UHGV virus genome: UHGV-0010228
Strand: one strand, 5' to 3'
Source of the DNA: a virus
Length of the DNA stretch: 64,000 nucleotides
In this document: in pieces, positions 4,405-61,500 of the stretch
How the letters are laid out: each line of letters starts with the position of its first letter
Numbering within the stretch: position 1 is the first letter of the stretch
Notes under the pieces: generated by a model
What the model saw: the letters and a program-made list of their open reading frames with translations, nothing else
What the model was told of the DNA's origin: nothing
The model's database searches: none
Made by a program: the position numbers and the translations under genes

Positions 4405-4824
4405 ATGCATAATGATATTGAAGCTATGGAAGGGCTTATTAAAAAATTTAAAGAAAATAAGCAAATCCTTAAAGAGGCAAGAAAATATTATCGCAATAAA
4501 AATGATAAAACGATAATAAAAATGTTTATAGATGCCAATGGTGGACCAGATAATTATAATAAAACTCCACAGAAAATAATAAAAGCCTCAATTAGAAATC
4601 AATATATTATTGGTGGGGCAATGATTGCTGTTGCTGGAGCTGGAACGATGTTTATTTCTGATGTTGACTTTATTGACGTGTCCGGAATACCTGTGGGTGT
4701 TTTTATCTATGCATCACAAAAATTCTATTATCTAGTTCCTATTCGTGAGGGTAAGCGCGATAAAGCTAGATCATATACTCGAGATTCTATGATTACTTTT
4801 TTATATAATCATATGAATAATTAA
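4405..4824 (+). CDS. hypothetical protein with N-terminal MHNDIEAMEG|LIKKF leader and a Gly/Ala-rich transmembrane-like segment
   Basis: aggagg RBS. Shares the IEAMEGLI motif with ORFs 12864-13454 and 34708-35415. Confidence 0.55.
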   Translation: MHNDIEAMEGLIKKFKENKQILKEARKYYRNKNDKTIIKMFIDANGGPDNYNKTPQKIIKASIRNQYIIGGAMIAVAGAGTMFISDVDFIDVSGIPVGVFIYASQKFYYLVPIREGKRDKARSYTRDSMITFLYNHMNN

Positions 4825-10533: not shown

Positions 10534-10634
10534 AAAATAAGAGATTTTAAATCTCTTATTTTTTTAATATTTTTTATAAAAATATATTATTATAGTGATA
10601 ATTTACTATAATCAATTCAAGGAGGAAAATACTA

Positions 10635-11935: not shown

Positions 11936-12817
11936 ATGGGAATATTATCTGATTTTGAATATGAAGTATATGAAGCTGAGGAATCTTCAGTGGTAATATC
12001 TGGAATGAATGCTAAATTTGCTAATAAAATAGCTCATAGAATGCCAGAATTAACTAATGGGGATAAGCTTAAGAAAGAAGCTAAAAAGCTTTATAAAGAT
12101 GATCCAGAAGGTGCAATTGCTAAAATGGAAGAAGCACTTGGCTTGTATAGTAAATTATTAGCTAGAATTAATAAACACGATCAGGATCATCCTAATGCTG
12201 CTAAATCGTCATCAAAAGCATATATTGAATACTGTGTTGATTCATGTAGAGCATATTTAATTAAATGGAAAAATCATGATGAAAGAAAAATAAAAGCGAT
12301 CATTAATGATTTAAGAAATGAAAGAGAATCAATTGGTAAATCAACTGAAAGTTGGTACTCTGATTATGGCTATTTAGATACAGAAGCAACAGAAGGACTA
12401 AAAAATAAGATTCTTACAACGACAGATGATTTTAAGAATAAATTTGCGAAACGCCCATCAGGATTCCGTAGTGATGAAGATGCAGTATGGGCATTCTTAC
12501 TTAGTTCTATAGATCAGCATTCTGTTGATAGTAAAGATCTTCAAACAACATTAGATAGTCTTGATAGAGACATTAATTATTTTTGCTATAAAAAGCAGTT
12601 AACCTGTGCTATGAAAAGATATTCAAATTTAATCGACTCTTCAAATAAACCAACCGGTAAAGTTGTACCATATGCAATACTAAATAAGCATGAAAAACCA
12701 TATATGGTAGTATGTATGTGTAATGGTAAATCTGGCGGATTTGCAATATCATATGTATATTCAGTAATTAATGAGGAGCCTCGTAAATCTCAGCTGTTAA
12801 AATTTTTATATGAATAA
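11936..12817 (+). CDS. hypothetical protein, MGILSDFE-leader family (293 aa)
   Basis: N-terminus MGILSDFEYEVYEAEE is shared with the convergent gene 12864-13454. Confidence 0.5.
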   Translation: MGILSDFEYEVYEAEESSVVISGMNAKFANKIAHRMPELTNGDKLKKEAKKLYKDDPEGAIAKMEEALGLYSKLLARINKHDQDHPNAAKSSSKAYIEYCVDSCRAYLIKWKNHDERKIKAIINDLRNERESIGKSTESWYSDYGYLDTEATEGLKNKILTTTDDFKNKFAKRPSGFRSDEDAVWAFLLSSIDQHSVDSKDLQTTLDSLDRDINYFCYKKQLTCAMKRYSNLIDSSNKPTGKVVPYAILNKHEKPYMVVCMCNGKSGGFAISYVYSVINEEPRKSQLLKFLYE

Positions 12818-16202: not shown

Positions 16203-16227
16203 TCATTCATTTGTTTTTTTTTTGTTA

Positions 16228-16267
16228 TACATTATATTAATATTATATAATATAAGGAGGTATTATA
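16228..16267 (+). promoter_or_regulatory. conserved promoter plus RBS cassette (ttatacattatattaatattatataatataaggaggtattata) preceding MFDLY-family and MNDII-family genes
   Basis: The same cassette, with its T- or A-run, recurs at about 18294-18345 (minus), 22262-22326 (plus, variant) and 24033-24090 (minus). Confidence 0.5.
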
Positions 16268-17386
16268 ATGTTTGATTTATATAATACATTAGAATCATAT
16301 AATATAATAGATAATGATTATGCATATGAAGGTATTATAGATAAAGTAAAAAATGTAGGTAGTACTATATGGGGATGGTTAAAGAAAATATGGGAAACTA
16401 TAACGAATAAATTAGGAGAATTAGGTAAAAAGATAAAGAAAGCGTGGGAATCTGTTAAAAACTTTATTAAAAATAGAGGAAATAAATCAATAGAAGAAGA
16501 AGATGAAGAAGAACCATATCCAGAAGAAAATGATGAAGATAATTTATCTACTTCTACATCTAATAAATTTGCTAAAGGTAGAGGTAAGAATATAAATAGA
16601 AGAAGATTAAAAAGTGATGATAAAGAAGAAGATAAGTCAGTAGTTAAAAGTTTACCAGAGCCTGAAAAGACTAGTAGATATAAAAGTCCTAAATTAAAAG
16701 GCGGCAAAGTCACAGTAAATCCAGATCCAACCTCAGATGGAAATAAACCTAGAACTCGTATAGTGCGAGCTGGAAACGGTACAAATTATAATGCAATATT
16801 TCATCCAGATGGGAGTTTGAATAGAGAGTTAAATATAGCTATGAAGTTACTTTTAGAAGTGGCAACTCAGATTAATGTTAAATCTAAATGGTACAAAGAA
16901 TTATTATCAGTATATAGTGCTGAAGCAAAAATTGGTGATAAAGTTGGCGATGCAGAAGATCTTGAAGAAAAAACCAACAAAATGCTGCAAAATTCACCCA
17001 TAAATAATGAAGATATTGACGATTATTTAAATGATCTTGAAAATAAAATTTCAAATAAAGGTTATATTAGATTAACATCTAAAATTCCAGGAGTTGAAAA
17101 ATATTATCAAATGATATATACATCAATTTCGAAATTACAACAGTCAACTGGAGTTATATTGAATCAAATAAATAAAAAACTTGGTGAATTTAAAAGTAAA
17201 CATAGTAAATATGAATTTACGGCTAAGAATAGTAATGGCATAAATATGGAGTATATTCGCTTTAAAGGTAGTAAAAGTGGTTCTGATATTCATAAGAGTA
17301 TCCTTGATAATACTAAAAAACTTTCATCATTATATAGTCGTATCATAAGCATTACTTCTAAAATGATAATATCACCAAGCAAATAG
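16268..17386 (+). CDS. MFDLYNTLESYNII-leader family protein 1 (372 aa), putative packaged/internal virion protein with AYE|G processing motif
   Basis: The first 60 nt of the CDS are identical to the 17442-18293 gene and the first 41 nt to the 24128-24979 gene. Lys/Glu-rich middle region. Confidence 0.55.
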   Translation: MFDLYNTLESYNIIDNDYAYEGIIDKVKNVGSTIWGWLKKIWETITNKLGELGKKIKKAWESVKNFIKNRGNKSIEEEDEEEPYPEENDEDNLSTSTSNKFAKGRGKNINRRRLKSDDKEEDKSVVKSLPEPEKTSRYKSPKLKGGKVTVNPDPTSDGNKPRTRIVRAGNGTNYNAIFHPDGSLNRELNIAMKLLLEVATQINVKSKWYKELLSVYSAEAKIGDKVGDAEDLEEKTNKMLQNSPINNEDIDDYLNDLENKISNKGYIRLTSKIPGVEKYYQMIYTSISKLQQSTGVILNQINKKLGEFKSKHSKYEFTAKNSNGINMEYIRFKGSKSGSDIHKSILDNTKKLSSLYSRIISITSKMIISPSK

Positions 17387-17441: not shown

Positions 17442-18293
17442 TTAATCTACAACTTCAGCTTTGACATCAATTGGTTCATCACTAGTTACTTCTGCTCCAG
17501 ATAGATATTTTACAATATTAACAATTATCTGATAAGATTTTTTTAAATTATTTGAAATATTATTTATATGCTCAGTAGCATATTTATTGAATGCAGCATT
17601 GTAATCTTTAGAATTCTCAACTGTTTTATTGAAGTTAATTGATTGGACTACTTTCATATGAGCATCGCACACAGTATATTGATTGTGTAATACAGTACCA
17701 ATACTTTTTAAATTGTGTTCAGATAGCATATAATCATGTGGGGCCAATTTCAATTGCTCACTAACAACACTATACGCATGATCACATCTATCCTTATATT
17801 TACGAATATCTAACACAATATTTTTACTAGATGATTCACGAAGAGCATCCGATTCAACTTTATTGATAGGTACTTCCCCACCCGTGGATGGGTCTGATGT
17901 TTTTGTGATATATTTACAAATCCCTGCTAAATATTTATCTCCCCCAACTACAATTTTTAAATATTTAGCACTGAGATTAACCAATTTTATTATTTTCTTA
18001 CCAGCGTGAATCTTGTTCATCTGTGTACTAGCAATCTTTCTACCTATTTTAGTATTACTAAGTTTAGATTTTAGCGTGGTAATTCCAGTTTTTAATACAC
18101 TCATAATCTTTTTTATAATACCAGCAATAAAACCAACTGCTCTATCTATTATTTTAGCAATTTTTGATGATGCGATCTTAGTTAATTTACCACTTGCAGC
18201 TCTAGCATCGTTATCAATTTCTAAATACCTTTCATATGCATAATCATTATCTATTATATTATATGATTCTAATGTATTATATAAATCAAACAT
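17442..18293 (-). CDS. MFDLYNTLESYNII-leader family protein 2 (283 aa)
   Basis: The N-terminal 20 aa are identical at the nucleotide level to family member 1. The motif is AYE|R. Confidence 0.55.
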   Translation of the reverse strand: MFDLYNTLESYNIIDNDYAYERYLEIDNDARAASGKLTKIASSKIAKIIDRAVGFIAGIIKKIMSVLKTGITTLKSKLSNTKIGRKIASTQMNKIHAGKKIIKLVNLSAKYLKIVVGGDKYLAGICKYITKTSDPSTGGEVPINKVESDALRESSSKNIVLDIRKYKDRCDHAYSVVSEQLKLAPHDYMLSEHNLKSIGTVLHNQYTVCDAHMKVVQSINFNKTVENSKDYNAAFNKYATEHINNISNNLKKSYQIIVNIVKYLSGAEVTSDEPIDVKAEVVD

Positions 18294-18349
18294 TATAATA
18301 CCTCCTTATATTATATATAATATTAATATAATGTATAATAAAAAAAAAA

Positions 18350-18387: not shown

Positions 18388-19086
18388 CTAAGCTAATAAC
18401 CTAGAAGGATCCTTAGTACCACCAGTTATAATAACCATTGACTTACTAAGGAATGAAATTCCGGCAGTAATTGATTTTTTAATATATCCGATATATGCAG
18501 TTAAGTTATGACTATCATTTGACTCATTGTATGAACGCTTAGCCTGAACAGCTTTTGTTAAAGTACTTTCAATTGTAGAATCTAAGCTACTAAGAGTCTG
18601 GATACCACTTGAAATTGCAGCTGCAAACTTATCTAAACGTGCAGGTGAATATACATTATTAGCAGTTCTCTTACCAACTTTTTCTCCTAATTCATTCATT
18701 GAGGTTATGTAATTAGAAATTTTATCTCCATAATCTTTTGCATTATCCGCAAAATTCTTACCAGACTTTAATCTACCACTAACAGCCTTAATAGAACCAG
18801 AAATTAACTTTACACCTTTAAGTGACATCTCAACATACTTAATTGGTGCTTTATCATTAATCTTTTCCTGAATCTTAGTTCCGATCTTAGTACTCTTAAG
18901 CTTATTGCTTAATTTGCTAAATTTTTCCTTTAATCCGTTAATTCTGTCTCTGAACCATTTCATTACTGCGGCAACAACTTTATTACTTTTAATTGCAGAA
19001 CCTGCATTAGAAAGTTTATCTTTAATTCCTTCTTCTGCAAGATCGATCTTATAAGATTCTAAAGTTTCAATTACATCGAACATCAT
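18388..19086 (-). CDS. MMFDVIETLESY-leader family protein 3 (232 aa), diverged paralogue
   Basis: N-terminus MMFDVIETLESYKIDLAEE|G. The body has the same predicted helical character as the other members. Confidence 0.5.
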   Translation of the reverse strand: MMFDVIETLESYKIDLAEEGIKDKLSNAGSAIKSNKVVAAVMKWFRDRINGLKEKFSKLSNKLKSTKIGTKIQEKINDKAPIKYVEMSLKGVKLISGSIKAVSGRLKSGKNFADNAKDYGDKISNYITSMNELGEKVGKRTANNVYSPARLDKFAAAISSGIQTLSSLDSTIESTLTKAVQAKRSYNESNDSHNLTAYIGYIKKSITAGISFLSKSMVIITGGTKDPSRLLA

Positions 19087-22280: not shown

Positions 22281-22326
22281 TATACATTATATTAATTATA
22301 ATTTATAGAAAGGAGTATATTATATA

Positions 22327-22896
22327 ATGTTTGATCTATATAATACACTTGTTGCATATGAGGGATTATTAAAGAATGCATATAATAGTTATAAAACTAA
22401 TATAAACAATGCAAATCTTATGCGAAAAATCGAGAAAACTATTGAAAAGTCATCTGAGTTTTATTTGAAGTTTATTGGTGAGGGTGATGATAAAACTAAA
22501 GAGGAAGCTGCTAATTTTTTTGAAAAGTGGGCACAATTATGTTACTCCAATACGATTAAATTTAATAAATCAATATTTTTAAAAGGATATGTAAATAAAT
22601 ATGAGTATTTACTAAAGGGTGGATATGCTGAACGATATGGATTAACATCTGAAACCCAATTAAATCCGGATAATCCCATGATGCAAGATATATTAAATGA
22701 TGCTTATCTTGGAATTATTGAAAAGCTATCATATAAAGGTCAACTTGTATATCTCATGGGCACTCCAGATAACTATATTTATTACTTTACTGATGATAAA
22801 GGAAATTTTGTCATGAAATATAATGATGAAATGTTGGATGAAATTATAAAGTACTATCAGAATAATATTGATGAGTATAATGCAAAGTTCAAATAA
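22327..22896 (+). CDS. MFDLYNTL-leader family protein 4 (189 aa; MFDLYNTLVAYE|G)
   Basis: Shared N-terminal motif and a variant of the promoter cassette. Confidence 0.5.
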   Translation: MFDLYNTLVAYEGLLKNAYNSYKTNINNANLMRKIEKTIEKSSEFYLKFIGEGDDKTKEEAANFFEKWAQLCYSNTIKFNKSIFLKGYVNKYEYLLKGGYAERYGLTSETQLNPDNPMMQDILNDAYLGIIEKLSYKGQLVYLMGTPDNYIYYFTDDKGNFVMKYNDEMLDEIIKYYQNNIDEYNAKFK

Positions 22897-22910
22897 AGGA
22901 GGTATTATAT

Positions 22911-23405
22911 ATGAATGATATAATAGTAATGGAAGGATTAATTTCTAAAATGAGAAATCGTTTAAAATTGAAAAAGATTAAAAAGAATTCTGCACCTTAT
23001 AAAGAAATAACTCATGATGAATTTATAAAAAATTATTTAAATAAAATTAAAAAATGCCAAAATTTAATGTGGACAAATATGATGAAATTAAAATCGAAGT
23101 ATCCTATGATAACTAAAATGATTTCTAAGCGTAGTGATAATGAAATGATAGTTCCGGTAAATGATGTTCATATAAACACTTATGTGTATTTAATAGATTA
23201 TGATGGATCAAATGTTGAATCACATGAGAAGCAATATTCAAATTTTGATAGATCTGAATTAGAACCAGCTCTATCAGAAATTGCTAAGGAATGTGTTGAT
23301 AAAATATTTGGTAATGATTCAAATATTGGTTATGATGAAGGTGGAGATTATAAAGAAGTCTGCTATGGAATTGTATTTAGAGATACTTTTATACATGTAA
23401 ATTAA
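22911..23405 (+). CDS. MNDIIVMEG|LI-leader family protein A (164 aa)
   Basis: N-terminus shared with the convergent gene 23457-24032. Confidence 0.5.
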   Translation: MNDIIVMEGLISKMRNRLKLKKIKKNSAPYKEITHDEFIKNYLNKIKKCQNLMWTNMMKLKSKYPMITKMISKRSDNEMIVPVNDVHINTYVYLIDYDGSNVESHEKQYSNFDRSELEPALSEIAKECVDKIFGNDSNIGYDEGGDYKEVCYGIVFRDTFIHVN

Positions 23406-23410
23406 TAATA

Positions 23411-23456
23411 TATAACGTTTAGTGATATTTATCACTAAACGTTATATATTATTAAT
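23411..23456. terminator. bidirectional terminator
   Basis: Palindrome aatatataacgtttagtgatatttatcactaaacgttatatatt. Confidence 0.6.
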
Positions 23457-24032
23457 TTAGTTTCTTTTTCCATATAAGATCTCGGACAATTCATCTGAAC
23501 CCATATTCGGAATTTGAATCACAAGAGGGCCACCATCCCAATCTCCACCATATTCGTATTTCATATTATCGATACCATATTTATCAATTGCCGATTCAAT
23601 AATCATATCAATTGCTTTCCACGTCTGATTATATCTAGGATCATCGCCCCATTCTCGAACATTTATAGATTTATCATATTTTAGTATTTCATAAATGTCA
23701 TAATCTATAATGGTATATTCAATATTATTGTCATATGTTGATAATACATTTTCGTTTTCGACATATCCAACTAATTTAAATATATATTTAGCTTCTGGGT
23801 ATTTCTTTATAAGATTATTATATTCTCTTTTAACTTCATTATATATCTTAATAAATATAGGTTTATATTTAGATCTAAATTCATCTAAAGATATATTTTT
23901 AATATTATTAGATTTAGAATTATTATTAATATATCTAGATTTAGTCTGATTATTAGTAGCGTAAGCCTTATTTTTATTTATTTTATCTCTTAATCTCTTT
24001 ATTAATCCTTCCATTACTATTATATCATTCAT
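23457..24032 (-). CDS. MNDIIVMEG|LI-leader family protein B (191 aa)
   Basis: Preceded on the minus strand by the same promoter cassette as the MFDLY genes. Confidence 0.5.
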   Translation of the reverse strand: MNDIIVMEGLIKRLRDKINKNKAYATNNQTKSRYINNNSKSNNIKNISLDEFRSKYKPIFIKIYNEVKREYNNLIKKYPEAKYIFKLVGYVENENVLSTYDNNIEYTIIDYDIYEILKYDKSINVREWGDDPRYNQTWKAIDMIIESAIDKYGIDNMKYEYGGDWDGGPLVIQIPNMGSDELSEILYGKRN

Positions 24033-24067
24033 ATATAATACCTCCTTATATTATATATAATATTAAT

Positions 24068-24100
24068 ATAATGTATAATAAAAAAACAAGTGAATGACTA
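24068..24100 (-). terminator. rho-independent terminator (gtgaatgactaatattagtcattcac plus T7 on the minus strand)
   Basis: Hairpin followed by a T-run, downstream of gene 24128-24979. Confidence 0.55.
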
Positions 24101-24127
24101 ATATTAGTCATTCACTATTATTAACTA

Positions 24128-24979
24128 TTATATTGCCATCATCTTTGCAATTTCATCTGGGTTAAGAATTTTAATTTTAGTCATAGTCGTAAGTGTCCAT
24201 TTACATAAATTTGAAATTTGTGCGGTTATATTTTTTAGCGCTTTAGTATATTCATCCGTTAATTCATGAATATTCTCAAATTTAGTTACTCGATTTTCAA
24301 TCACTTTAAATTCATATACACATTTCATTATATTTGTATATACAGCTTTATACTCATCGAGTGAATCGACTAAATCCACCTCAAGAGTAAAAGTGTCAAC
24401 TTCATCAAGAGCATTATTAAGTCTGTTAATAATTACTGGAGCTGACTTTGTATCATAATGAATAAGATAGTCTCTTACATCAGCTTCAAACTTTCCAGTT
24501 TTATATAATTCATTGGGATTATCTAAAAATTTTACATAATTTCGGGTATATTGAAGAGTTTCTCTTAGCCATTTATTTGTCTGTTTAAGTTCATACTTTA
24601 TTTTATCAGTCAAAGTTTTAATTTTTTCTTTCTCTTCTTTTCGAGTTCTTTCCACTTCATCAACTATATTACGTCTCTTTCTGTTATTTACTCTTTTTTG
24701 TTCATTCGGTTTATTATCTTCATTACCTCTAGTTTCACTCTCATTCATTTTTTCATTCGTCTTACCTTTCATATTCTTTATCATTAAATATACTTTCTTT
24801 ATCTTTCTACCTAATAATATAAATCCATTCTTTATTCCTTCCCATATCTTCTTTATAACAGACCATATACCTTTACCTACATTCTTTACTTTATCTATGA
24901 TACCTTCATAAGAGGGTTCTAATTCTCCCCCCCCCCCAATTATATTATATGATTCTAATGTATTATATAAATCAAACAT
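24128..24979 (-). CDS. MFDLYNTLESYNII-leader family protein 5 (283 aa) with a GGGG insertion encoded by a G11 tract
   Basis: The first 41 nt are identical to family member 1. DNDYAY is replaced by GGGGELEPSY, followed by the shared EGIIDKVKNVG. The gene is probably co-transcribed with the protease gene upstream. Confidence 0.55.
   Translation of the reverse strand: MFDLYNTLESYNIIGGGGELEPSYEGIIDKVKNVGKGIWSVIKKIWEGIKNGFILLGRKIKKVYLMIKNMKGKTNEKMNESETRGNEDNKPNEQKRVNNRKRRNIVDEVERTRKEEKEKIKTLTDKIKYELKQTNKWLRETLQYTRNYVKFLDNPNELYKTGKFEADVRDYLIHYDTKSAPVIINRLNNALDEVDTFTLEVDLVDSLDEYKAVYTNIMKCVYEFKVIENRVTKFENIHELTDEYTKALKNITAQISNLCKWTLTTMTKIKILNPDEIAKMMAI
24927..24937. repeat. C11/G11 homopolymer inside coding sequence (candidate slipped-strand contingency site)
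   Basis: Eleven consecutive C on the plus strand in a genome that is about 30% GC. They encode GGGG in the leader of gene 24128-24979. Confidence 0.6.
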
Positions 24980-24991
24980 TATAATACCTCC

Positions 24992-25849
24992 TTAGAGATT
25001 CTTCATGAAGTCCATAATTTCACGATTATATTTTAATTCTGGCTTTACAAAGATTCTACCTTCATCAGTTCTCATTGTAATCATATTAGAAGATCTATCA
25101 TATGCAACAGATTCTAGAGCTGGATTCATCTCATCAATAACCCTATTAACTCTTTCAGACTTACTTAATACTATATCAGTAAATGATTCCATGACAGTTT
25201 CGAATTTATTTTTAGATACAATATTCTTAACTGGAATATCCATGTCCATATATGCATTAGAATGTGATGGTAAGTATACTCTATCGTAGCAAACCAATCT
25301 ACCAGGACCCATAACATCTATTGTGCCATCAGGGTTTTTTCTCTGAGGTACTAACGATCTAGCAGAAAATGCTCCTCTAATGCCTTGTAATATATTTCTC
25401 ATAAATTTATATCCAGGAGATCCAACACCTTCATCAAGCGTCTCTACAACACCATGGAGTTCTTTACCTCTCCACTCTAATGATTTAATAATATGAGAGC
25501 AATTATTAGGATCTATATTAGCAATTCTCTCCAATGAAACTTCACCAGTTGTTGGAATTGGATGTCCTGCTTCGCCTGGCCATCCACCTGCTTTAGTTAA
25601 GAATTCCTGTACGAATTCCTGAGCTAACATAGTTCTTACATGATCTGCATTCCAAAGTCTTCTATTTCTATTTCTTCCATAGAAATCCTGTAAGCAAGTT
25701 GAGAATCTTAAGTAATTAAGTCCATTTTCATTTTCAACATGTTTGAGTATTTCTATATTATCATTCTGTGGCATAGCAGCTTCCATTACCACATAATAAT
25801 CTAAATAACGTTCATCATTAGGATTAAATTTCGGCATAATGATAAACAC
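24992..25849 (-). CDS. putative prohead maturation protease (T4 gp21 / phiKZ gp175-like)
   Basis: GEAGHPIP and GIRGAFSARSL blocks are reminiscent of the His and Ser regions of the gp21 family. It sits immediately upstream of, and is co-oriented with, a leader-family gene. Confidence 0.4.
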   Translation of the reverse strand: MFIIMPKFNPNDERYLDYYVVMEAAMPQNDNIEILKHVENENGLNYLRFSTCLQDFYGRNRNRRLWNADHVRTMLAQEFVQEFLTKAGGWPGEAGHPIPTTGEVSLERIANIDPNNCSHIIKSLEWRGKELHGVVETLDEGVGSPGYKFMRNILQGIRGAFSARSLVPQRKNPDGTIDVMGPGRLVCYDRVYLPSHSNAYMDMDIPVKNIVSKNKFETVMESFTDIVLSKSERVNRVIDEMNPALESVAYDRSSNMITMRTDEGRIFVKPELKYNREIMDFMKNL

Positions 25850-25952
25850 CGTCCTTTCTTTTTTGAATTATAGCATTGTTAATCCATAAGAATATAGAGA
25901 TTTAAACCATTAAATAAATCTAAAATAATAAAGAAAGGTGGGATAAAATCGA

Positions 25953-27761
25953 ATGACACCTTATAATAAACAACCAGAATTTTCTCTGGATGATAGTGAT
26001 GTGTTAGATAAATTAATAGATTATTGTACGAAGGATACCTCTAACCTAAATTTAAAAAATGATTTCTTTAATAGGGTTTATGATATTCTTCTTAAAGCAA
26101 CGCCATCATATAATTCATCTATATGCTCTTCCAGAAATATAGATTTTATATTATGGCTATATCGATTTGAAAAGGTTGGTAATCCCAATAGTACTCCGAA
26201 TTTATTAAATTTATATTTTAATAAAATTTACGAATTTCATTTAGACTATGGATTACAAAAATCAGTAGATTTAATAAATTCATTTTGTAGACGTTCAATA
26301 GATGAAACATCTAATCTTAAAAGTGAAGAGATAAGATTTTATGCACTGCTTTTCATACTATATTATATATATTCATTATATGATGAGCAGGAAAATAATT
26401 TATACATAGAAACTTTAATAAAAACTTTTATGGATAATCCACATACGCAAGATGTTATGTTTATATATATTGAGGATATATATATCCCGAATGATCGCAT
26501 TATTAATTATACTAATTTAAATCAGTACTTATTCCATAATGGTATCATATTTAAATCAGTAGAGAATTTAACAATAGAAAATCTTATGAAAAACACATTA
26601 GACGGATCTATTAATAATATAGATCCAGAGTATAATAAAATATATACTTTATTATGTATGAAAATTTGTGATATATTTAATTCTCGAAATCATATTCTTA
26701 AATTCATTGATGATGCAATAGATAATTTTTTAATATATCGATCTAGGATTAAGATTAATAATGCTAAATATGAAAATTTTACAACATCTGATTATGCAAC
26801 TGGATATCTTGCAAGTACTATGGATGCTAGAATTGCCAGTTATTTGAAAACTGCAAATATGTATAATGATGATATCTATAAAAAATCTTCATTAGAAAGT
26901 TTCATATCAGATTTTCATTATAACATAATTCCAGAATTTAAATCATATATAAAAGATGATTATAAAGATAAGGAAAATTATATCATAACATCTTTCATAT
27001 ATGAAAATTTAAAAGCTTTTGATTTGAGAGATAATTCAGAAATTAAAGAATTTTTTGATGAATATCTGCCATCAATGGAGTGTACCATTCCATTACCAGC
27101 ATATGAAGCAACTAATGATGATATAGATCCAGAACCAAGTAGTGAGGCCCCGGTTGATGAAGATGATTTAGAAACTCCAACATCAAATGGTAATTATAGA
27201 AGAAAGAAATTTAAAAAGGATAAATTGAAAAAATCAGTTGCTAGTAAAACAATGGGTGCAGAAAAGAAAATATATAGTGCTTATCGTCAGTATAAAGAGA
27301 AAGAAACTGCTGTAGATAATCAGTTAGTGAAAATGACTAATGTTATGAAAGATAAGTTTAAGGGTAATGTTAGAGAAGAAATCATTGGTGGTAAAGTATG
27401 GACACCAATAACTATACTTAAAAAAGCTCTAGGAACTGCAGCGATATTTTCCTTTTCAAAGATAGGTGGTATATTAGCATTTATAGTTGGGCATTATACT
27501 AAGAGAAAAGTAAAGAATAAAGAACGAAAAAAGATAATTCTTGAATTGGAATTAGAAATTAAAATGTTAGAAGAAAAAATAGAAGATGCTAAAGGCGATG
27601 GAAACCGTCAGGCTAAATATGCAATGATGCGCACTAAAGCTGAATTGGAAAATGCTGTTGAAAAGATTAAATTTGGTCTAGAAGCTGATGATAAAGCTAT
27701 ACAGGCAGGAAAGAATGTAATAAAAGGTGGAGTAAATGCTGCACTTTCAAATTTAAAATAA
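25953..27761 (+). CDS. hypothetical protein (602 aa) with C-terminal hydrophobic segment and coiled-coil
   Basis: Long ORF with aaaggtggg RBS. Confidence 0.5.
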   Translation: MTPYNKQPEFSLDDSDVLDKLIDYCTKDTSNLNLKNDFFNRVYDILLKATPSYNSSICSSRNIDFILWLYRFEKVGNPNSTPNLLNLYFNKIYEFHLDYGLQKSVDLINSFCRRSIDETSNLKSEEIRFYALLFILYYIYSLYDEQENNLYIETLIKTFMDNPHTQDVMFIYIEDIYIPNDRIINYTNLNQYLFHNGIIFKSVENLTIENLMKNTLDGSINNIDPEYNKIYTLLCMKICDIFNSRNHILKFIDDAIDNFLIYRSRIKINNAKYENFTTSDYATGYLASTMDARIASYLKTANMYNDDIYKKSSLESFISDFHYNIIPEFKSYIKDDYKDKENYIITSFIYENLKAFDLRDNSEIKEFFDEYLPSMECTIPLPAYEATNDDIDPEPSSEAPVDEDDLETPTSNGNYRRKKFKKDKLKKSVASKTMGAEKKIYSAYRQYKEKETAVDNQLVKMTNVMKDKFKGNVREEIIGGKVWTPITILKKALGTAAIFSFSKIGGILAFIVGHYTKRKVKNKERKKIILELELEIKMLEEKIEDAKGDGNRQAKYAMMRTKAELENAVEKIKFGLEADDKAIQAGKNVIKGGVNAALSNLK

Positions 27762-28600: not shown

Positions 28601-30358
28601 ATGTTAGATAAGACAATTTATAATGACGTTGTAGGTAATGCTCAGTATGCAGATTCAGATGCTGGGTTTAAGTCAGAAGTTAGATCAATCTTCGAAGCAT
28701 ATGCTAATGAAGGTGTTAACCTGACTGACAATATCGGATCTGTAATTTCAGATGCACATCTTAGAGAAGACTTCATAGGTTCTATCTGCGAATCACTCGC
28801 AGCTTCACCTCTCTTCACTAATGCTGATGCTGCAAATGCACCTTTCTATAACAACTATGGTGCAAGAGTTGAGCAGTTACTTAGCAACACACTTAAGTCT
28901 GTAGCTGCAGAATCTGTAATGTATGGTTATGCTCCTATCGTTGCATACAACCCATTCTTCCTCAAGAAGCAGTGGATCGATTGTATCTTCAAGGATGTCC
29001 TCATGACAGAAATTCCTAAGACTCCAGTTATCAATCTCGGTTTCGAGAGAAGATATCTTAAGGATCTTGATGGTGAAAGATATCCACTTCCAGAAGCTCT
29101 CTATGATGATGAAATCGTAAAGAAGCTCATGGATGCATCAACTGGTCTTAACCTTACAGAAGAAGCAATTGATATTAATGATTGTAAGCAGCTTTATCTT
29201 ATAGATCAGAAGTATATCCCAGGCGTTAATGTAAATGATAAGTCAGTAGAAATCACTCCAAATATTTGTGTTTGGAAGGTTATGCTTGCTGGTGCAGATG
29301 GCGAAATCGAACTTCCGGTAAACATGACAGTTGATGTTACTACTCATAACTTCATTAATACTTCAATCAAGTTTGATGTAAAGGATGAAACTACTGGTGA
29401 AGTTAAGGAAACAATTGAAGATCAGCTCGTTGGTCATATGAACTTCAGAGATGCTAAGCTCACTCTTATGTCAACAACTGGTAAGGTTACAAAGGTATTC
29501 CTTAGAGGTAAAATTGCAAATAGATGGAACCAGAGATCACTGGATGTAGAAAGAACTGTAGAACACATTCAGAAGACAATGCCAGAATCTGGTCCAAGAC
29601 TGAACTCTTCAATCACTGTTGAAGATGCTGCAGATGCACTTGCTCTTCAGAATATTGACCAGATCTCAGATAACATCAATATCATGGGTGCTACTCTGGC
29701 TAACCTGGAAGATGCTGAAATTAATATGTTCCTTAAGAACTCATTTGAAGCTCAGAAGAAGGTTGCTGAAACAGGCGTTCTTTACAATGAACTTGGTGAT
29801 AATGTAATGATCGCTGAAGGTAACTTCAATACTCTTCCATATGAAACATTCAATGGTAGAATTTCTGAATGGCAGAAGGATGCAAGAGAATACTTCGAAA
29901 GAATGCTCTCTGCTCTTAAGATTAAGCTCCGTTCTCAGAATATGCTCTTCGTTGCAGTTTCACATCCAAATACTGTTAGATATCTCCAGGATGGTATCAA
30001 CTGGGTATTCTCAGATGACACTCAGATCGGCGGTGTAAGACTTAACTATAACTTTGGTATTTACACAACTGCACAGGATAGAGTTCATATCGTAACAACT
30101 CAGAGAATGGCTGAATCTGAAGGTATTAGATTCATTGGTATCCCTCTGACTCAGGAACTCATCACATTCAAGCACTATAAGTACAATGTAATTATTGATA
30201 GAGGATACAGAAACCCTCTGACTCCTCTCACTCCAAATATTATGGCTACTCAGAGAACTCTCACATTTGAAATATTCCCAGTTCAGGGTGTAATGACAAT
30301 TGAGGGTAGAGAACTCTTCTCACCTGATAGCCTTAAGAGAAAGACTGTTACGCCCTAA
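28601..30358 (+). CDS. abundant virion structural protein (585 aa), candidate major capsid protein; ends at the CCC_UAA +1 shift site
   Basis: Codon usage shifts to aag/ttc/atc/ctc codons, typical of highly expressed genes. Strong aaaaggagg RBS. Confidence 0.45.
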   Translation: MLDKTIYNDVVGNAQYADSDAGFKSEVRSIFEAYANEGVNLTDNIGSVISDAHLREDFIGSICESLAASPLFTNADAANAPFYNNYGARVEQLLSNTLKSVAAESVMYGYAPIVAYNPFFLKKQWIDCIFKDVLMTEIPKTPVINLGFERRYLKDLDGERYPLPEALYDDEIVKKLMDASTGLNLTEEAIDINDCKQLYLIDQKYIPGVNVNDKSVEITPNICVWKVMLAGADGEIELPVNMTVDVTTHNFINTSIKFDVKDETTGEVKETIEDQLVGHMNFRDAKLTLMSTTGKVTKVFLRGKIANRWNQRSLDVERTVEHIQKTMPESGPRLNSSITVEDAADALALQNIDQISDNINIMGATLANLEDAEINMFLKNSFEAQKKVAETGVLYNELGDNVMIAEGNFNTLPYETFNGRISEWQKDAREYFERMLSALKIKLRSQNMLFVAVSHPNTVRYLQDGINWVFSDDTQIGGVRLNYNFGIYTTAQDRVHIVTTQRMAESEGIRFIGIPLTQELITFKHYKYNVIIDRGYRNPLTPLTPNIMATQRTLTFEIFPVQGVMTIEGRELFSPDSLKRKTVTP

Positions 30359-55837: not shown

Positions 55838-57043
55838 ATGCCACACGATATATTATATGATACAACATATATATCAAAAGATGGTGAACGGAATGGATAT
55901 CCATATCCAAATCCTAACGGATATCCACCTCCACCACCATATCCACCGTACCCGTACCCACCATATCCTGGGCAGCCTGTACCTCCTCCACCAAAGCCAC
56001 CAACAACGAGTGATATTAATAAACCGTACTATGCAACTCATGGTACGCCTACTAAAATCACTCCGATGTTTAGGACTATTAATGGAGTAGAATATCAGGT
56101 ATTACCAGAAACGGTTACAGATGCGGTATATGATCGTGATGGACTTAATCTTACAGCAATTCTTGAATCACTTGCAAGAACTGAAGATCTTAAACCATTT
56201 ACAAATCGTCTTGAGCAGCTCAAGATGGCTGTTACAATTAAAGGCATTCTTGTAAATGATGAGGTAAGTAACGCAATAGATAAGCTTTATGGTATGACAT
56301 CTATGTCCATAGGTGATTTATACTTAGTAGAATCAAGGAATTTTGGTAGTGAAGTAAGTTATGATCAGTATTTATATGTAGGAATTGAACATGGATGGAT
56401 GTATTGTGGTACATCAGTACAAGCACAGAATGTAACTGCATATATACATACACATGTAAATAAAGATGTACTTGATGCTATACCAGAATTAGTTGCTGAT
56501 AAAGAAATAGTTCCACCTGGATCTGTATTAATGACAGCTGGTGATGGAACATCATTAATGTGGGCCGACGGAGTTATAACAGAAGTAACTTTAAAAGAAC
56601 ACAATGATGATCAAAAAGCTCATCCATATTTAAGATTCTTAATAAATGAAAAAGCTGATAAAGCTATTGGATATAATGATGTGCTTAAGGTTGATAATTG
56701 GACAGAATCTGCAGATGGACAGAATTTTGTGTATGAATATATTAGCAAATATATTCCTGATAATGCATATGTTTCAATTCTTCCTATAGAAGATTCAGCG
56801 GGAAAGATTGCTGATGCTATTTCTAAAGCTGAAATTCAGTCAAGTTTTGAAATTAGTAGTCCTATATCAGGAATTACCAGAGCGGTTATTCGTGCAACAT
56901 ATAGACCTACTATAGATATTCCAATCTTTGTAAAGGTCGATCACGATTTAGTAATGCAGGATAATGAAATCCCAGATAAGTGCCAGAATTGTAAGTGCTT
57001 TGATGGGGAACATTGTTGCATGAGCACATGCATTCATTACTAA
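55838..57043 (+). CDS. Pro/Tyr-rich (PPII/collagen-like) N-terminal protein with Cys-rich C-terminus (401 aa); probable fibre/adhesin component
   Basis: YPYPNPNGYPPPPPYPPYPYPPYPGQPVPPPPKPP. C-terminus CQNCKCFDGEHCCMSTC. aaaggagg RBS. Confidence 0.45.
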   Translation: MPHDILYDTTYISKDGERNGYPYPNPNGYPPPPPYPPYPYPPYPGQPVPPPPKPPTTSDINKPYYATHGTPTKITPMFRTINGVEYQVLPETVTDAVYDRDGLNLTAILESLARTEDLKPFTNRLEQLKMAVTIKGILVNDEVSNAIDKLYGMTSMSIGDLYLVESRNFGSEVSYDQYLYVGIEHGWMYCGTSVQAQNVTAYIHTHVNKDVLDAIPELVADKEIVPPGSVLMTAGDGTSLMWADGVITEVTLKEHNDDQKAHPYLRFLINEKADKAIGYNDVLKVDNWTESADGQNFVYEYISKYIPDNAYVSILPIEDSAGKIADAISKAEIQSSFEISSPISGITRAVIRATYRPTIDIPIFVKVDHDLVMQDNEIPDKCQNCKCFDGEHCCMSTCIHY

Positions 57044-58326: not shown

Positions 58327-61300
58327 ATGGCTAATTTTGAATTTAATGGAGCAACATTAGACTGGGCGTTAGCGTTTAAGCGTACTGGTGCGTTCCCAGT
58401 TGATCTCTCTTCAATGTTCACTTCTTATGCTGATGCTGTAAAGTATGCAGCAGGAGACGGTTCTGATGCTAGAGGACTTGGAAAGACATCATATATTGGT
58501 CAGCCAATCGTAGTATCAGAAAATGATGAAGTTCATATGTATATCATTAAGAGTGATAGAACTCTTGGTGAAGTTGGTGCAGCATTCAATGGTGATAACG
58601 TTTCTCTGGTAGTTACTGACAATGAGGATGGTTCTAAGACACTTGCAGTCGCTGGTGTTAAGGATGCTACAGTTGGTCAGACTCCAGTTATTTATAATGC
58701 AGGTACTGAAGAATCACCTGTAATGGGTATTAAGTGGATAACTCCAGACACTTCTACTGTAGAAGGACTTACAACAACAGTTGGAAATCTTAAGACTACA
58801 GTTGAAGAGCATACTACTACACTTGGTACACATGGTACAGATATTGAAGATCTCAAGACAGGTAAGGCTGATAAGGCTACTACACTCGCTGGTTATGGTA
58901 TCGAAGATGCTTATACTAAGAGCGAAATTGATGGTAAGCTTACTGGTGCTCTTCATTATAAGGGTACAAAGGAAACATTTGAAGCTCTTACAACAGATAC
59001 TGAATATACGCCTACAATTGGTGATACATGGAACATTACAACAGCTGGTGGTACTGATGCTAGTGGTACTGCTATTAAGGCTGGAGATAATGTTATTTAT
59101 AATGGTACTGGTTGGGATGCTTCGTCAGGTACAACTGATCTTTCTGCATACTATACTAAGAATGAAGTAAATACTACAGTTAGTGGTATTAATGATAAGA
59201 TCACTGCTATAAATGAAAAACTCGATACTGTTTCATCAGATGCAACTAAGGCTGAAAAGTCAGATGTTAATGGTAACATCAAGATTGATGGTGTTGAAAC
59301 TAAGGTTTATACTCTTCCAACTGCAGGTGAAGATCTTGGTGGTATTAAGTCTGCTACTGGCGATAATAAGGTTGTAGTTGATACTGAATCTGGAGAAGCA
59401 AGCGTTGCTTCTATTGCGGCGTCTACAATCAATGGCCAGACTACAGCAGATAAGCTTTACATCAACGAAGCTGCTGTTGCTGTTGCTGATATATTTGAAA
59501 CAACTGGTGCTGCTAAGTCTGCTTCTAAGGTTAATAAGACTCTCAAGATTGGTGAGAAGGAATTTGATGGTTCCGCTGCAGTCGAAATTACATCTGCTGA
59601 TGTTCCATTACCTGCAGACGTTGCTAAAACAGCAGATATTACTAAGCTTCAGGAACAGATTACTGCAAATGGTACAGCTATAGAAGGCCTTAAGACTGAT
59701 AAGGCTGATGTAGCAACTACACTTGCCGGTTATGGTATTGCTGATGCTTATACTAAGTCTGAAGTTGATACTGAACTTGCTAAGAAGCTCGAAGCTGCAG
59801 CTCTCGATAATTATGTAGAATATACTGACTATGCTACTGCTGAAAAGGGTGGTACAGTTAAGTCTTCTGAAGCTAAGGATGAAATCCTTGTTAAGTCAAC
59901 TGGTATTATGAGCCTTAATACAGTATCTGCTGATAAGGTTGATGGTACAGTTGCTTCTGCTGCTGATGTAACTTCTACTATAAATGGTAAGGCAATTAGC
60001 ACTATCTTTGAAGAAGATGGTGTAACAGCTAAGGCTGCTTCTAAGCTCGCTGCTGCTAGAACTATTTCTGTTGCTGGTGCTGCTACTGGTAGTGCAACAT
60101 TTGATGGTTCAGGTGATGCTGAAATTACTGTTGCGCTTAAGGATTCTGGTGTAACTGCAGGTACTTACACAAAGGTAACTGTAGATGCTAAGGGTCTTGT
60201 AACTGAAGGTGCTGCACTTGCTGCTGCTGATATTCCTGATCTTACACTTGCTAAGATTACAGATGCTAAGGCACTTGCTGCTAAAGATAAGGTAGCTAGA
60301 ACTGATATCACTGAAGAATTTGAAGCTGAAATTGCTGCACTTGAAGGTGCTAATCATACACATGATAACAAGTCAGTTCTTGATGGTATTTCATCTGCAA
60401 AGGTAACTGCATGGGATAAGGCTGTTGAAGATGTTGCTAAGAAGGCAGATTCTGCAACAACTCTTGCTGGTTATGGTATTGAAGATGCTTATACTAAGGC
60501 TGAAGTAAATGGTATGGTTGCTGGTGCATTCCACTATAAGGGTACAAAGGAAACTCTTGCTGCTCTTACTGGTGATACTGAATATACGCCTGCAACTGGT
60601 GATACATGGAACATTACAACAGCTGGTGGTACTGATGCTAATGGTACTGCTATTAAGGCTGGAGATAATGTTTGCTATAATGGTGAAGGATGGGATGTAC
60701 TTGCTGGTACAACTGATCTTTCTGCATACTACAACAGAACTGAAGTCAATGACGCATTAGCTAAGAAGGCTGACAAGGATGCATTCGATACAGTATCTGG
60801 TAAGGTAGATACACTTGTAACTGAAGTTGAAGATGCTGAAACTGGTCTCATTAAGAAGGTTACTGATGTTGTAGCTGAGTCTGCTCAGAATAAGAAGGAC
60901 ATCACAACTATTAATGAAACTACAATTCCAGCTCTTGATACTAGAGTTAAGAGTGCAGAAGAATCACTCGCTGCACTTACAGGTGATGGTGAAGATTCTG
61001 TTGCTGCAAAGGTTAAGGCTGTTGACGATAAGGTTACAGAATTAACTACAACAGTTACTGATAATAAGACAGCATTTGATGATCATCTTACAGCTGAAAC
61101 TGCTCATAAGGCTCTCTTTGATAAGAAGGCTGATAAGCCATTCAGTGCTACAGTAACATTTACTAGAGCTGCTAATGCTACAGCTCTTACTGGAACTATG
61201 ACTAATGCTGCATTTGCTGAAGATATTGATTACATTATCAATCTTAATGCTGCTACTGCAGCTGCAGAGAATGTAATTCGTGAACTCGAATGCTCTACAG

Positions 61301-61428
61301 TTCCAACTATTACAATTAGTGCTGGTAAGGCAGAAATTTCTATCGAATGTGCTGCTAAAACTAGCGAAACTGAGTCTACTGCTGAGATTACAGTTCAGGT
61401 ATTTCCAGCAGGTACTACAGTAGCGTAA
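58327..61428 (+). CDS. large fibre protein (1033 aa) with internal repeats of about 100 aa
   Basis: The repeat unit ATTLAGYGIEDAYTK...HYKGTKET..AALTxDTEYTP..GDTWNITTAGGTDAxGTAIKAGDNV.YNG.GWD occurs at about residues 180-280 and 700-800, with a third partial copy near residue 465. aagggagg RBS. Confidence 0.6.
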   Translation: MANFEFNGATLDWALAFKRTGAFPVDLSSMFTSYADAVKYAAGDGSDARGLGKTSYIGQPIVVSENDEVHMYIIKSDRTLGEVGAAFNGDNVSLVVTDNEDGSKTLAVAGVKDATVGQTPVIYNAGTEESPVMGIKWITPDTSTVEGLTTTVGNLKTTVEEHTTTLGTHGTDIEDLKTGKADKATTLAGYGIEDAYTKSEIDGKLTGALHYKGTKETFEALTTDTEYTPTIGDTWNITTAGGTDASGTAIKAGDNVIYNGTGWDASSGTTDLSAYYTKNEVNTTVSGINDKITAINEKLDTVSSDATKAEKSDVNGNIKIDGVETKVYTLPTAGEDLGGIKSATGDNKVVVDTESGEASVASIAASTINGQTTADKLYINEAAVAVADIFETTGAAKSASKVNKTLKIGEKEFDGSAAVEITSADVPLPADVAKTADITKLQEQITANGTAIEGLKTDKADVATTLAGYGIADAYTKSEVDTELAKKLEAAALDNYVEYTDYATAEKGGTVKSSEAKDEILVKSTGIMSLNTVSADKVDGTVASAADVTSTINGKAISTIFEEDGVTAKAASKLAAARTISVAGAATGSATFDGSGDAEITVALKDSGVTAGTYTKVTVDAKGLVTEGAALAAADIPDLTLAKITDAKALAAKDKVARTDITEEFEAEIAALEGANHTHDNKSVLDGISSAKVTAWDKAVEDVAKKADSATTLAGYGIEDAYTKAEVNGMVAGAFHYKGTKETLAALTGDTEYTPATGDTWNITTAGGTDANGTAIKAGDNVCYNGEGWDVLAGTTDLSAYYNRTEVNDALAKKADKDAFDTVSGKVDTLVTEVEDAETGLIKKVTDVVAESAQNKKDITTINETTIPALDTRVKSAEESLAALTGDGEDSVAAKVKAVDDKVTELTTTVTDNKTAFDDHLTAETAHKALFDKKADKPFSATVTFTRAANATALTGTMTNAAFAEDIDYIINLNAATAAAENVIRELECSTVPTITISAGKAEISIECAAKTSETESTAEITVQVFPAGTTVA
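58925..59165 (+). repeat. intragenic direct repeat, copy 1 (about 240 bp, roughly 90% identical to 60500-60745)
   Basis: Near-identical amino-acid blocks, and the artefactual off-frame ORFs 58781-59170 and 60509-60760 share IRVQRK..LNIRLQLVIHGTLQQLVVLML. Confidence 0.55.
60500..60745 (+). repeat. intragenic direct repeat, copy 2
   Basis: See copy 1. Confidence 0.55.
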
Positions 61429-61458: not shown

Positions 61459-61500
61459 TTAAATAGGGGGGGGGGTAAAATTACCCCCCCCCTATTTAAT
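61459..61500. terminator. perfect G10-loop-C10 hairpin (ttaaata G10 taaaatta C10 tatttaa); likely terminator and homopolymer hotspot
   Basis: Read directly from the sequence. Lies between the fibre gene and the next gene. Confidence 0.5.

Follow-up and report, generated by a model that had tools for sequence, protein, structure and literature searches.

A candidate slippage-prone G tract in the leader of a probable head-cargo gene of a human-gut jumbo phage

The G11 gene and its cassette

The stretch of DNA analysed here, 64,000 nucleotides of the virus genome UHGV-0010228 (the window in the following), carries at positions 24128-24979 of the minus strand a leader-family gene for a 283-amino-acid (aa) protein, and the coding sequence of its leader contains eleven consecutive G residues. 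Direct reading of the plus strand gives C11 at 24927-24937, which bears out the first-pass annotation on this point, and the minus strand reads ATT GGG GGG GGG GGA GAA, corresponding to codons 14-19 of the open reading frame (ORF). The homopolymer, a candidate slippage site, falls into codons 15-18 (GGG GGG GGG GGA) and is identical in the related contig L022. The gene begins MFDLYNTLESYNIIGGGGELEPSYEGIIDK / MFDLYNTLESYNIIGGGGELEPSYEGIIDKVKNVG and is in frame (ON) in the window. Its leader, a putative propeptide of 25 codons (24905-24979, minus strand), reads MFDLYNTLESYNII-GGGG-ELEPSYE, with the predicted cleavage site S-Y-E↓G, and is common to at least four paralogues. A TTG start inside the tract, from which a gene caller derived the N-terminus 'MGGGLEPSYEG', was rejected, as no Shine-Dalgarno sequence precedes it and as it would drop the conserved leader.

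A tract of this length is highly non-random in this genome, as the first-pass annotation had stated on the basis of a GC content of about 30%; the window has 31.0%. When G and C runs are pooled, there are 35 of length 4, four of length 5, none of length 6-8, and one each of length 9, 10 and 11, so that run numbers fall off about 8-fold per added base and are then followed by three outliers, namely C11 and the G10 and C9 runs at 61466-61492. Under an order-0 model, 2e-4 runs of at least 11 are expected per window. Contingency loci are recognized by an uninterrupted homopolymer of about 8 nucleotides (nt) or more, far beyond chance, in an ORF or promoter, and the G11 run is of this kind. Furthermore, of all 888 glycine codons in the remaining 48 genes of the window, just 33 (3.7%) are GGG, and because GGG is so rare, the run is to be regarded as a feature of the DNA and not as a by-product of glycine coding. 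The latter point bears on the explanation that a poly-glycine linker was selected in the propeptide for its flexibility, with a DNA run that is stable in practice. In-frame leaders with GG (P0006, P0007) and with GGGG do exist, and the tract is the same in the window and L022. For such a linker, however, GGT or GGA codons would be expected, codon usage gives three GGG codons in a row a probability of just about 5e-5, and a homologous tract in a sister gene varies in length and breaks the frame (see below). We consider this explanation very improbable.

The consequences of a length change were simulated by translation. Runs of G8, G11 and G14 give the full-length protein, G10 gives a product of 19 aa and G12 one of 24 aa. 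The earlier expectation that slippage by one G truncates the protein is confirmed in kind, although not in the length of about 15 residues that had been given. Together with naturally OFF alleles of a paralogue, the simulation indicates that length changes toggle translation between ON and OFF, as at contingency loci. Two further details of the first-pass annotation need adjustment. Paralogues with a DNDYAY segment in place of the glycines are indeed present, at 16268 (plus strand) and 18293 (minus strand), but the segment that differs is GGGGELEPSY and not GGGG alone. The structure described as G10/C10 at 61466-61493 does comprise the sole other G/C runs of at least 6 nt, its arms being G10 (61466-61475) and C9 (61484-61492).

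The G11 gene and its ribosome-binding site form a cassette of 859 bp (24133-24991, minus strand) that is placed exactly between the stop codon of a protease gene and a terminator. The cassette is present in the window and in L022 and absent from the contig L001. The upstream gene (24992-25837, minus strand) encodes a prohead maturation protease, which matches phrog_3014 at 1e-10 and Peptidase_S77 with 22.5 bits, below the cut-off of 27. Its stop codon overlaps a strong Shine-Dalgarno sequence of the G11 gene (24980-24994, minus strand; TAAGGAGGTATTATA), and the G11 gene starts 12 nt past the protease. A terminator-like hairpin with a T run (24080-24116, minus strand; AGTGAATGACTAATATTAGTCATTCACT) closes this unit. 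As a promoter motif is lacking at the G11 gene, it is presumably co-transcribed with the protease. Both flanks of the cassette are about 99% identical in L001, where the stop codon of the protease gene runs straight into the same terminator hairpin, and it is for this reason that 24133-24991 is seen as a presence/absence cassette between strains. The T run after the terminator also differs, being T7 in the window (24080-24086) and T12 in L001 (16561-16572). A second cassette block at 22327-23405, with genes for proteins of 189 aa and 164 aa, is likewise found in the window and L022 and missing from L001; the stretch from a 696-aa gene to the protease is a hot spot for cassettes.

Behind the leader, the 283-aa protein begins with a basic, amphipathic segment, which is followed by a linker rich in charge and by a C-terminal part that is helical. 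A single-sequence AlphaFold2 model consists entirely of helices and is of low confidence (predicted local distance difference test, pLDDT, 46; predicted template modelling score, pTM, 0.33). No Pfam or PHROG family was matched above threshold, the matches being sub-threshold or of the coiled-coil type, and profile searches gave no similarity to tail fibres or receptor-binding proteins (RBPs). Database records place the protein on 3 contigs.

The leader family and its predicted processing

The ribosome-binding site and the first 14 codons are identical in DNA at the gene starts 16268 (plus strand), 18293 (minus strand) and 24979 (minus strand), and related sequences are found at 19086 (minus strand) and 22327 (plus strand), while the bodies behind these leaders diverge or are unrelated. 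One short N-terminal leader on several unrelated bodies is a feature of capsid-targeting propeptides, and the family has this form. Two types of its leader can be distinguished, one with ...NII-DNDYAY-E↓G and the other with ...NII-G(n)-ELEPSY-E↓G. The paralogue that is most important for the following is the 372-aa gene at 16268-17386 (plus strand), which has the tract-free DNDYAY leader in the window (ON) and whose orthologues carry a leader with an out-of-frame G tract (G9, G11 or G12). A further 283-aa paralogue (17442-18293, minus strand) shares the identical leader start (MFDLYNTLESYNIIDNDYAYE), and a 189-aa paralogue (22327-22896, plus strand; MFDLYNTLVAYE↓G) lies within the second cassette block. 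The 232-aa paralogue (18388-19086, minus strand; MMFDVIETLESYKIDLAEE↓G) weakly matches PF12699, the family of phiKZ internal head proteins (E=2.7e-4, 20.7 bits, below the cut-off of 27); the G11 protein itself gave no PF12699 match in the Pfam search and is not placed in that family. A second leader family, MNDIIxMEGLI with the ending A/V-M-E↓G, is found at 4405, 12864 (minus strand, internal), 22911 and 24032 (minus strand). The proteins P0027 and P0028, which are homologues of the P0006 body, carry this second leader instead of MFDLYNTL, and since homologous bodies can carry either leader, the leaders are exchangeable modules.

All leaders of both families end with A/S/V-x-E followed by G. 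Of 54 ORFs, 16 have the motif [AS]xE[GSA] among their first 45 aa, compared to 25 of 306 internal windows of 45 residues (8%), which is a 3.6-fold enrichment (Fisher p=5e-5), and the N-terminal set includes the major capsid protein (…EAYANE↓G). Further examples of such N-termini are those at 11936, 19908 (minus strand), 27779, 28601 and 34708. This distribution suggests that many proteins of the head module, the major capsid protein included, are processed by the protease. In phiKZ, cleavage follows the rule S/A/G-X-E. The leader ends S-Y-E↓G and A-Y-E↓G fit this rule and the A-X-E rule of SPN3US, both of which belong to the proteases of other phages. For SPN3US, the prohead protease has been described to cut after A-X-E (PMC10052503). 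The shared leader, the enrichment of the N-terminal motif, the SPN3US rule, the propeptides of T4 and the weak phiKZ match of one paralogue together lead us to infer that the first 25 residues of the G11 protein are a targeting propeptide that would be cut after S-Y-E, and the G11 protein is probably a packaged head cargo.

Two more sequence elements recur in the family. An AT-rich motif, TATACATTATATTAATA, is located about 25 nt upstream of leader-family starts, with 7 matches at up to 2 mismatches against 0.5 expected; sites are at 16226-16242, 18321-18337 (minus strand), 22281-22297 and 24061-24077 (minus strand), and the G11 gene is without it. The motif is probably a promoter common to leader-family genes. 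The predicted mature N-terminus, GIIDKVKNVG..IW..(L/I)KKIWE.I, is common to several paralogues and also to P0003, P0004 and P0011 (24830-24904, minus strand; 16331-16400, plus strand). It resembles a cationic amphipathic helix and could possibly be membrane- or DNA-active.

Tract alleles, constraint and alternative explanations

The tract was compared between sibling genomes over the stretch that lies between the shared leader start (…TATAATAT[A/T]) and TTA[G/A]AACCC, and the genomes with a G9, G11 or G12 tract in the 372-aa paralogue are 95-100% identical to the window. An unexpanded, in-frame form, ATA-GGGGG-TGAA, is present in a 226-aa gene in four samples (L003-L006). The 283-aa gene has ATT-G11-AGAA, in frame, in both the window and L022. 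The orthologues of the 372-aa gene at 16268 show three different forms, all of which are out of frame: ATT-G9-A (L001 and L002) lies in register +1 and leads to a stop after 22 aa, whereas AT-G11-A (L022 and L025) and ATT-G12-AA (L023 and L024) both lie in register +2, with stops after 18 aa and 19 aa, respectively. L025 and L001 are 99.9% identical over 6.4 kb, yet they differ in their tract allele, and L023 still keeps a long unbroken run although its identity to the window is no more than about 95%. The alignment of the window with L001, of about 20 kb, contains about 150 substitutions, a few indels in intergenic A/T runs and three in-frame indels, and the G tract is the sole frame-breaking difference. 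The tract length in relatives, which the first-pass annotation had named as a check on its proposal, is therefore constant for the G11 gene itself in the window and L022 and variable (G9, G11, G12) for the homologous tract of the paralogue.

Such runs could in principle also stem from poly-G tails of reads or from the collapse of a repeat, and an assembly artefact had been named at the outset as an outcome that would overturn the proposal. It is true that the leader repeats break assemblies, as in L009, which was found via its protease and ends inside the leader, and that the contig L021 breaks at the G/C hairpin described below. However, the frame is kept through the run, both flanks match the leader family, and the same G11 with an identical 283-aa product is found in the independent assembly L022 (ERZ27286939). 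Every tract allele was obtained independently in two or more samples or assemblers (window and L022, L001 and L002, L022 and L025, L023 and L024), which makes sequencing error unlikely. We therefore find an artefact hardly credible.

A second type of allelic change was found at the leader of the 372-aa gene. L022 equals the window over 20,624 nt save for one leader patch at 16309-16351 (plus strand), where the window reads AGATAATGATTATGCA and L022 (9537-9575) reads G11-ATTAGAACCCTCT, with an additional AAA to AAG change at 16351. This patch of about 43 nt trades the tract-free DNDYAY leader of the window (ON) for a G11 leader in L022 (OFF), and it resembles the result of a short-patch gene conversion, either among leader copies or with a co-infecting strain. 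A copy from the G11 gene of the same genome was ruled out as the source, as the two leaders differ (AT-G11-A compared to ATT-G11-AGAA, and ATT compared to ATC downstream).

Taken together, we consider it fairly probable that a slippage-prone G tract in a cleavable leader confers heritable ON/OFF switching on a dispensable protein that is probably packaged into the capsid. The leader (MFDLYNTLESYNII...S/A-Y-E↓G) would act as a modular address tag on at least five unrelated or divergent bodies, which it probably targets to the prohead core; there, the protease encoded by the adjacent gene would cut the tag off. Slipped-strand mispairing in replication would alter the run length, in line with the length variation between genomes that is observed at the sister tract. 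With G8, G11 or G14 the gene would be in frame (ON), whereas changes of ±1 would stop translation after 19 or 24 codons (OFF); changes of ±3 G would leave the mature protein as it is, since the glycines encoded by the run belong to the discarded part. Patch-wise recombination between leader copies would provide a second toggle, and the window and L022 differ by just such a patch. The outcome would be a phage population whose virions differ in the cargo proteins that they carry, with the G11 gene ON in the window. More tentatively, and with less than even confidence, it can be speculated that interchangeable leader cassettes, a hypermutable G run and leader gene conversion stochastically set the cargo of each lineage, as a form of bet-hedging against host defences that are blocked or triggered by single injected proteins.

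Several observations weigh against such a switch. The G11 gene's own tract is G11 in both assemblies in which it was read, and no G10 or G12 version of this gene was present among the database proteins, although the constancy between the window and L022 is a weak test because both are essentially one strain. Each of the three tract alleles of the 372-aa paralogue is OFF, as seen in six or more contigs that were read directly and in further ones by protein counts. The tract-bearing paralogue has a ratio of non-synonymous to synonymous substitution rates (dN/dS) of 0.8-0.9 in the closest pairs. Frameshifts also hit the family at a short run, by a G4-to-G5 change in L007, L008, P0019 and P0021. 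Finally, the family is without homologue in isolated phages, as judged by tblastn of the G11 protein and the paralogue 18388 against INPHARED. The first-pass proposal of a phase-variable ON/OFF switch therefore stands with respect to the location in the leader, the truncation by ±1 G, the length polymorphism of the paralogue tract and the variable C arm of the hairpin, while variation of the G11 tract itself is not seen between the window and L022.

The short-run frameshift recurs about 60 nt downstream of the tract site, where TGGGGA (codons of ...IWG) becomes TGGGGGA. In L007 (5610-5640) and L008 (100-130), it splits a 95%-identical orthologue of the G11 gene into parts of 54 aa and 218 aa, and the same change is found in a paralogue in P0019 and P0021, which derive from different contigs.

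The strongest rival is neutral decay. According to it, redundant and dispensable leader genes acquired the G run by a mutational accident, the run grew once it was past a threshold, and the OFF alleles are dying pseudogenes without any selected switch. The dN/dS of the tract-bearing paralogue, which ranges from 0.46 to 0.91, compares with 0.02 in flanking genes and 0.12 in the paralogue 17442; every tract allele of the 372-aa gene is OFF; entire cassettes are gained or lost between 99%-identical genomes; the G4-to-G5 frameshifts are unrelated to the tract; and the window's genome, too, has a truncated homologue, P0029. All of this would be expected from decay. On the other hand, the body ORF is open for 320-350 codons behind every out-of-frame tract, even in the lineage with 95% identity, and the three body indels relative to L001, of 27, 6 and 12 nt, are all multiples of 3. 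The long run has been kept unbroken in three lineages and not been interrupted by point mutations. In the comparison of the window with L023, moreover, the body dN/dS of 0.46 is significantly below 1 (binomial p=0.015). The constraint on the 372-aa body is weak, though probably not absent, which fits an intermittently expressed gene and equally one that is drifting out. Physically, the gene would be unstable between ON and OFF with or without selection for it. We consider neutral decay rather unlikely.

The intact bodies behind out-of-frame tracts could also point to recoding. Transcriptional slippage, or ribosomal frameshifting on the rare GGG codons, would allow the OFF alleles to yield a set fraction of full-length protein, so that the tract would tune dosage and not act as a heritable switch. 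Homopolymer runs of at least 9 nt are known slippage substrates, as in the G insertion of the paramyxovirus P gene and in bacterial A/T runs. Most alleles are out of frame, and GGG is the rarest glycine codon, which favours pausing. However, the registers 0, +1 and +2 all occur, whereas a programmed event normally fixes one, and no stimulatory structure was seen downstream. We therefore regard recoding as improbable, and a heritable switch by slippage and leader exchange as the preferred reading of the tract alleles.

Run-length variation was also seen outside the leader genes. A perfect hairpin at 61459-61499 (plus strand), TTAAATA-G10-TAAAATTA-C9-TATTTAA, follows the 1033-aa gene at 58327-61428 and has a predicted RNA folding energy of -32.1 kcal/mol (z=-3.6). 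Across the 9 related contigs that span it (L012-L020), the G10 arm is constant and the C arm has 9, 10 or 11 residues, and the 8-nt loop is found in either orientation, as TAAAATTA or as its reverse complement TAATTTTA, so that the loop has been flipped. The contig L021 ends exactly at this hairpin. Intergenic A/T runs at 10559, 11136 and 11572 of the window differ from L001 by +2, +6 and -3. These comparisons indicate that homopolymer instability is general in this lineage.

Phage setting and comparison with known systems

For the major capsid protein (28601-30358), the PHROG match is phrog_20655, and its matches in phage databases, all at 20-25% identity, are to the jumbo phages AR9, PBS1, Staphylococcus S6-like phages, Listeria LPJP1 and Yersinia phiR1-37, with 22-25% for AR9, PBS1, the S6-like phages and phiR1-37. 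The jumbo phage group of the AR9/PBS1 type includes phages with uracil-containing DNA. Close relatives of the window were found solely in human-gut metagenome assemblies (Hadza, MERR22 and Logan runs), in contigs of 223-256 kb, and the source is a human-gut jumbo phage of roughly 235-256 kb. The region 23400-26000 had no megablast match among INPHARED phages. The exact leader DNA had no match in IMG/VR and none in GTDB genomes, and in the JGI metagenomes there was just one chance match, in an unrelated gene of L010. The sole relative in IMG/VR, found via the protease, was L011, with 58% identity and different leaders; its 20.8 kb contain no G/C run of at least 6 nt. A 48-aa leader query returned one candidate, and an exhaustive phmmer search against 1.84 billion representatives returned 7 proteins, all of them close relatives or leader-only matches, with no distant homologues of the body. 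The window contains no tRNA genes that could have given a clue to the host. The ORF 55838-57043 opens with a proline- and tyrosine-rich stretch of low complexity (…GYPYPNPNGYPPPPPYPPYPYPPYPG).

In its architecture, the leader family is most readily compared with the internal proteins of T4. These have capsid-targeting propeptides of 10-19 residues that are removed by gp21, and they are dispensable and poorly conserved (PMC9026906). IPI, IPII and IPIII are targeted to the prohead core and ejected into the host, where IPI* blocks a type IV restriction enzyme (PMC9026906). As with the T4 capsid-targeting sequence (CTS), a short N-terminal leader stands here on otherwise unrelated, dispensable proteins, which it would target to the prohead core and from which it would be cleaved, but there is no sequence homology to the T4 CTS. 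The heads of phiKZ and SPN3US offer a similar parallel, with paralogous head proteins, propeptides ending in A/S-x-E, and the motif in the major capsid protein as well (PMC10052503, PMC9026906). In contrast to the phiKZ internal proteins, only one paralogue has a PF12699 match, which is below threshold, and the G11 protein matches nothing; the major capsid protein is just 22-25% identical to those of AR9, PBS1 and Staphylococcus jumbo phages. The G11 feature belongs to neither the T4 nor the phiKZ protein family. To our knowledge, no homopolymer switch has been found in T4 leaders or in phiKZ/SPN3US propeptides.

With regard to function, the most relevant studies are those with Campylobacter phages, for which hypermutable polyG tracts in receptor-binding protein genes have been described to alter host recognition (Sorensen et al. 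2021, Cell Rep 35:109214, as related in PMC12823448, PMC10877375 and PMC10579305). As far as these accounts of the system go, both cases have a long G run in a phage structural gene of an AT-rich genome, in which frame-shifting lengths would give mixed virions. The Campylobacter tracts lie in receptor-binding or host-recognition genes, whereas the gene here is located in the head module behind the prohead protease and has a head-type leader. By the same accounts, the present tract differs in lying in the leader of what would be an internal head (cargo) protein and not of an RBP, in an uncultured gut jumbo phage, and in genes that are unrelated in sequence. Bacterial contingency loci, such as the polyG genes of C. 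jejuni, undergo phase variation in simple sequence repeats by slipped-strand mispairing (PMC5808241, PMC10877375). A homopolymer of at least 9 nt in the 5' coding region, frameshift-dependent ON/OFF states and repeat numbers that vary among near-identical genomes, here at the tract of the paralogue, are common to these loci and the present one. Unlike them, the tract is part of a lytic-type phage genome and lies within a segment that would be removed, so that in-frame changes would spare the mature protein.

No phage homopolymer switches outside the receptor-binding proteins of Campylobacter phages are described in the searched literature, and if the proposed switch is real, it would constitute the first contingency locus to act on phage-injected proteins, and the first to be described in phages other than those of Campylobacter. 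Switching would then act on which proteins a virion injects and not on which cells it binds, and tract length, virion proteome and host range would provide a testable handle when set against each other. As T4 carries the anti-restriction factor IPI* among its internal, ejected proteins, an abundant gut jumbo phage type with switchable cargo would be of direct relevance to the arms races between phages and defences that take place in the human gut. Among the known systems, the polyG tracts of Campylobacter phages are the closest functional analogue of the G11 tract, and the T4 CTS and internal proteins, together with the phiKZ/SPN3US propeptides, are its closest architectural analogue.

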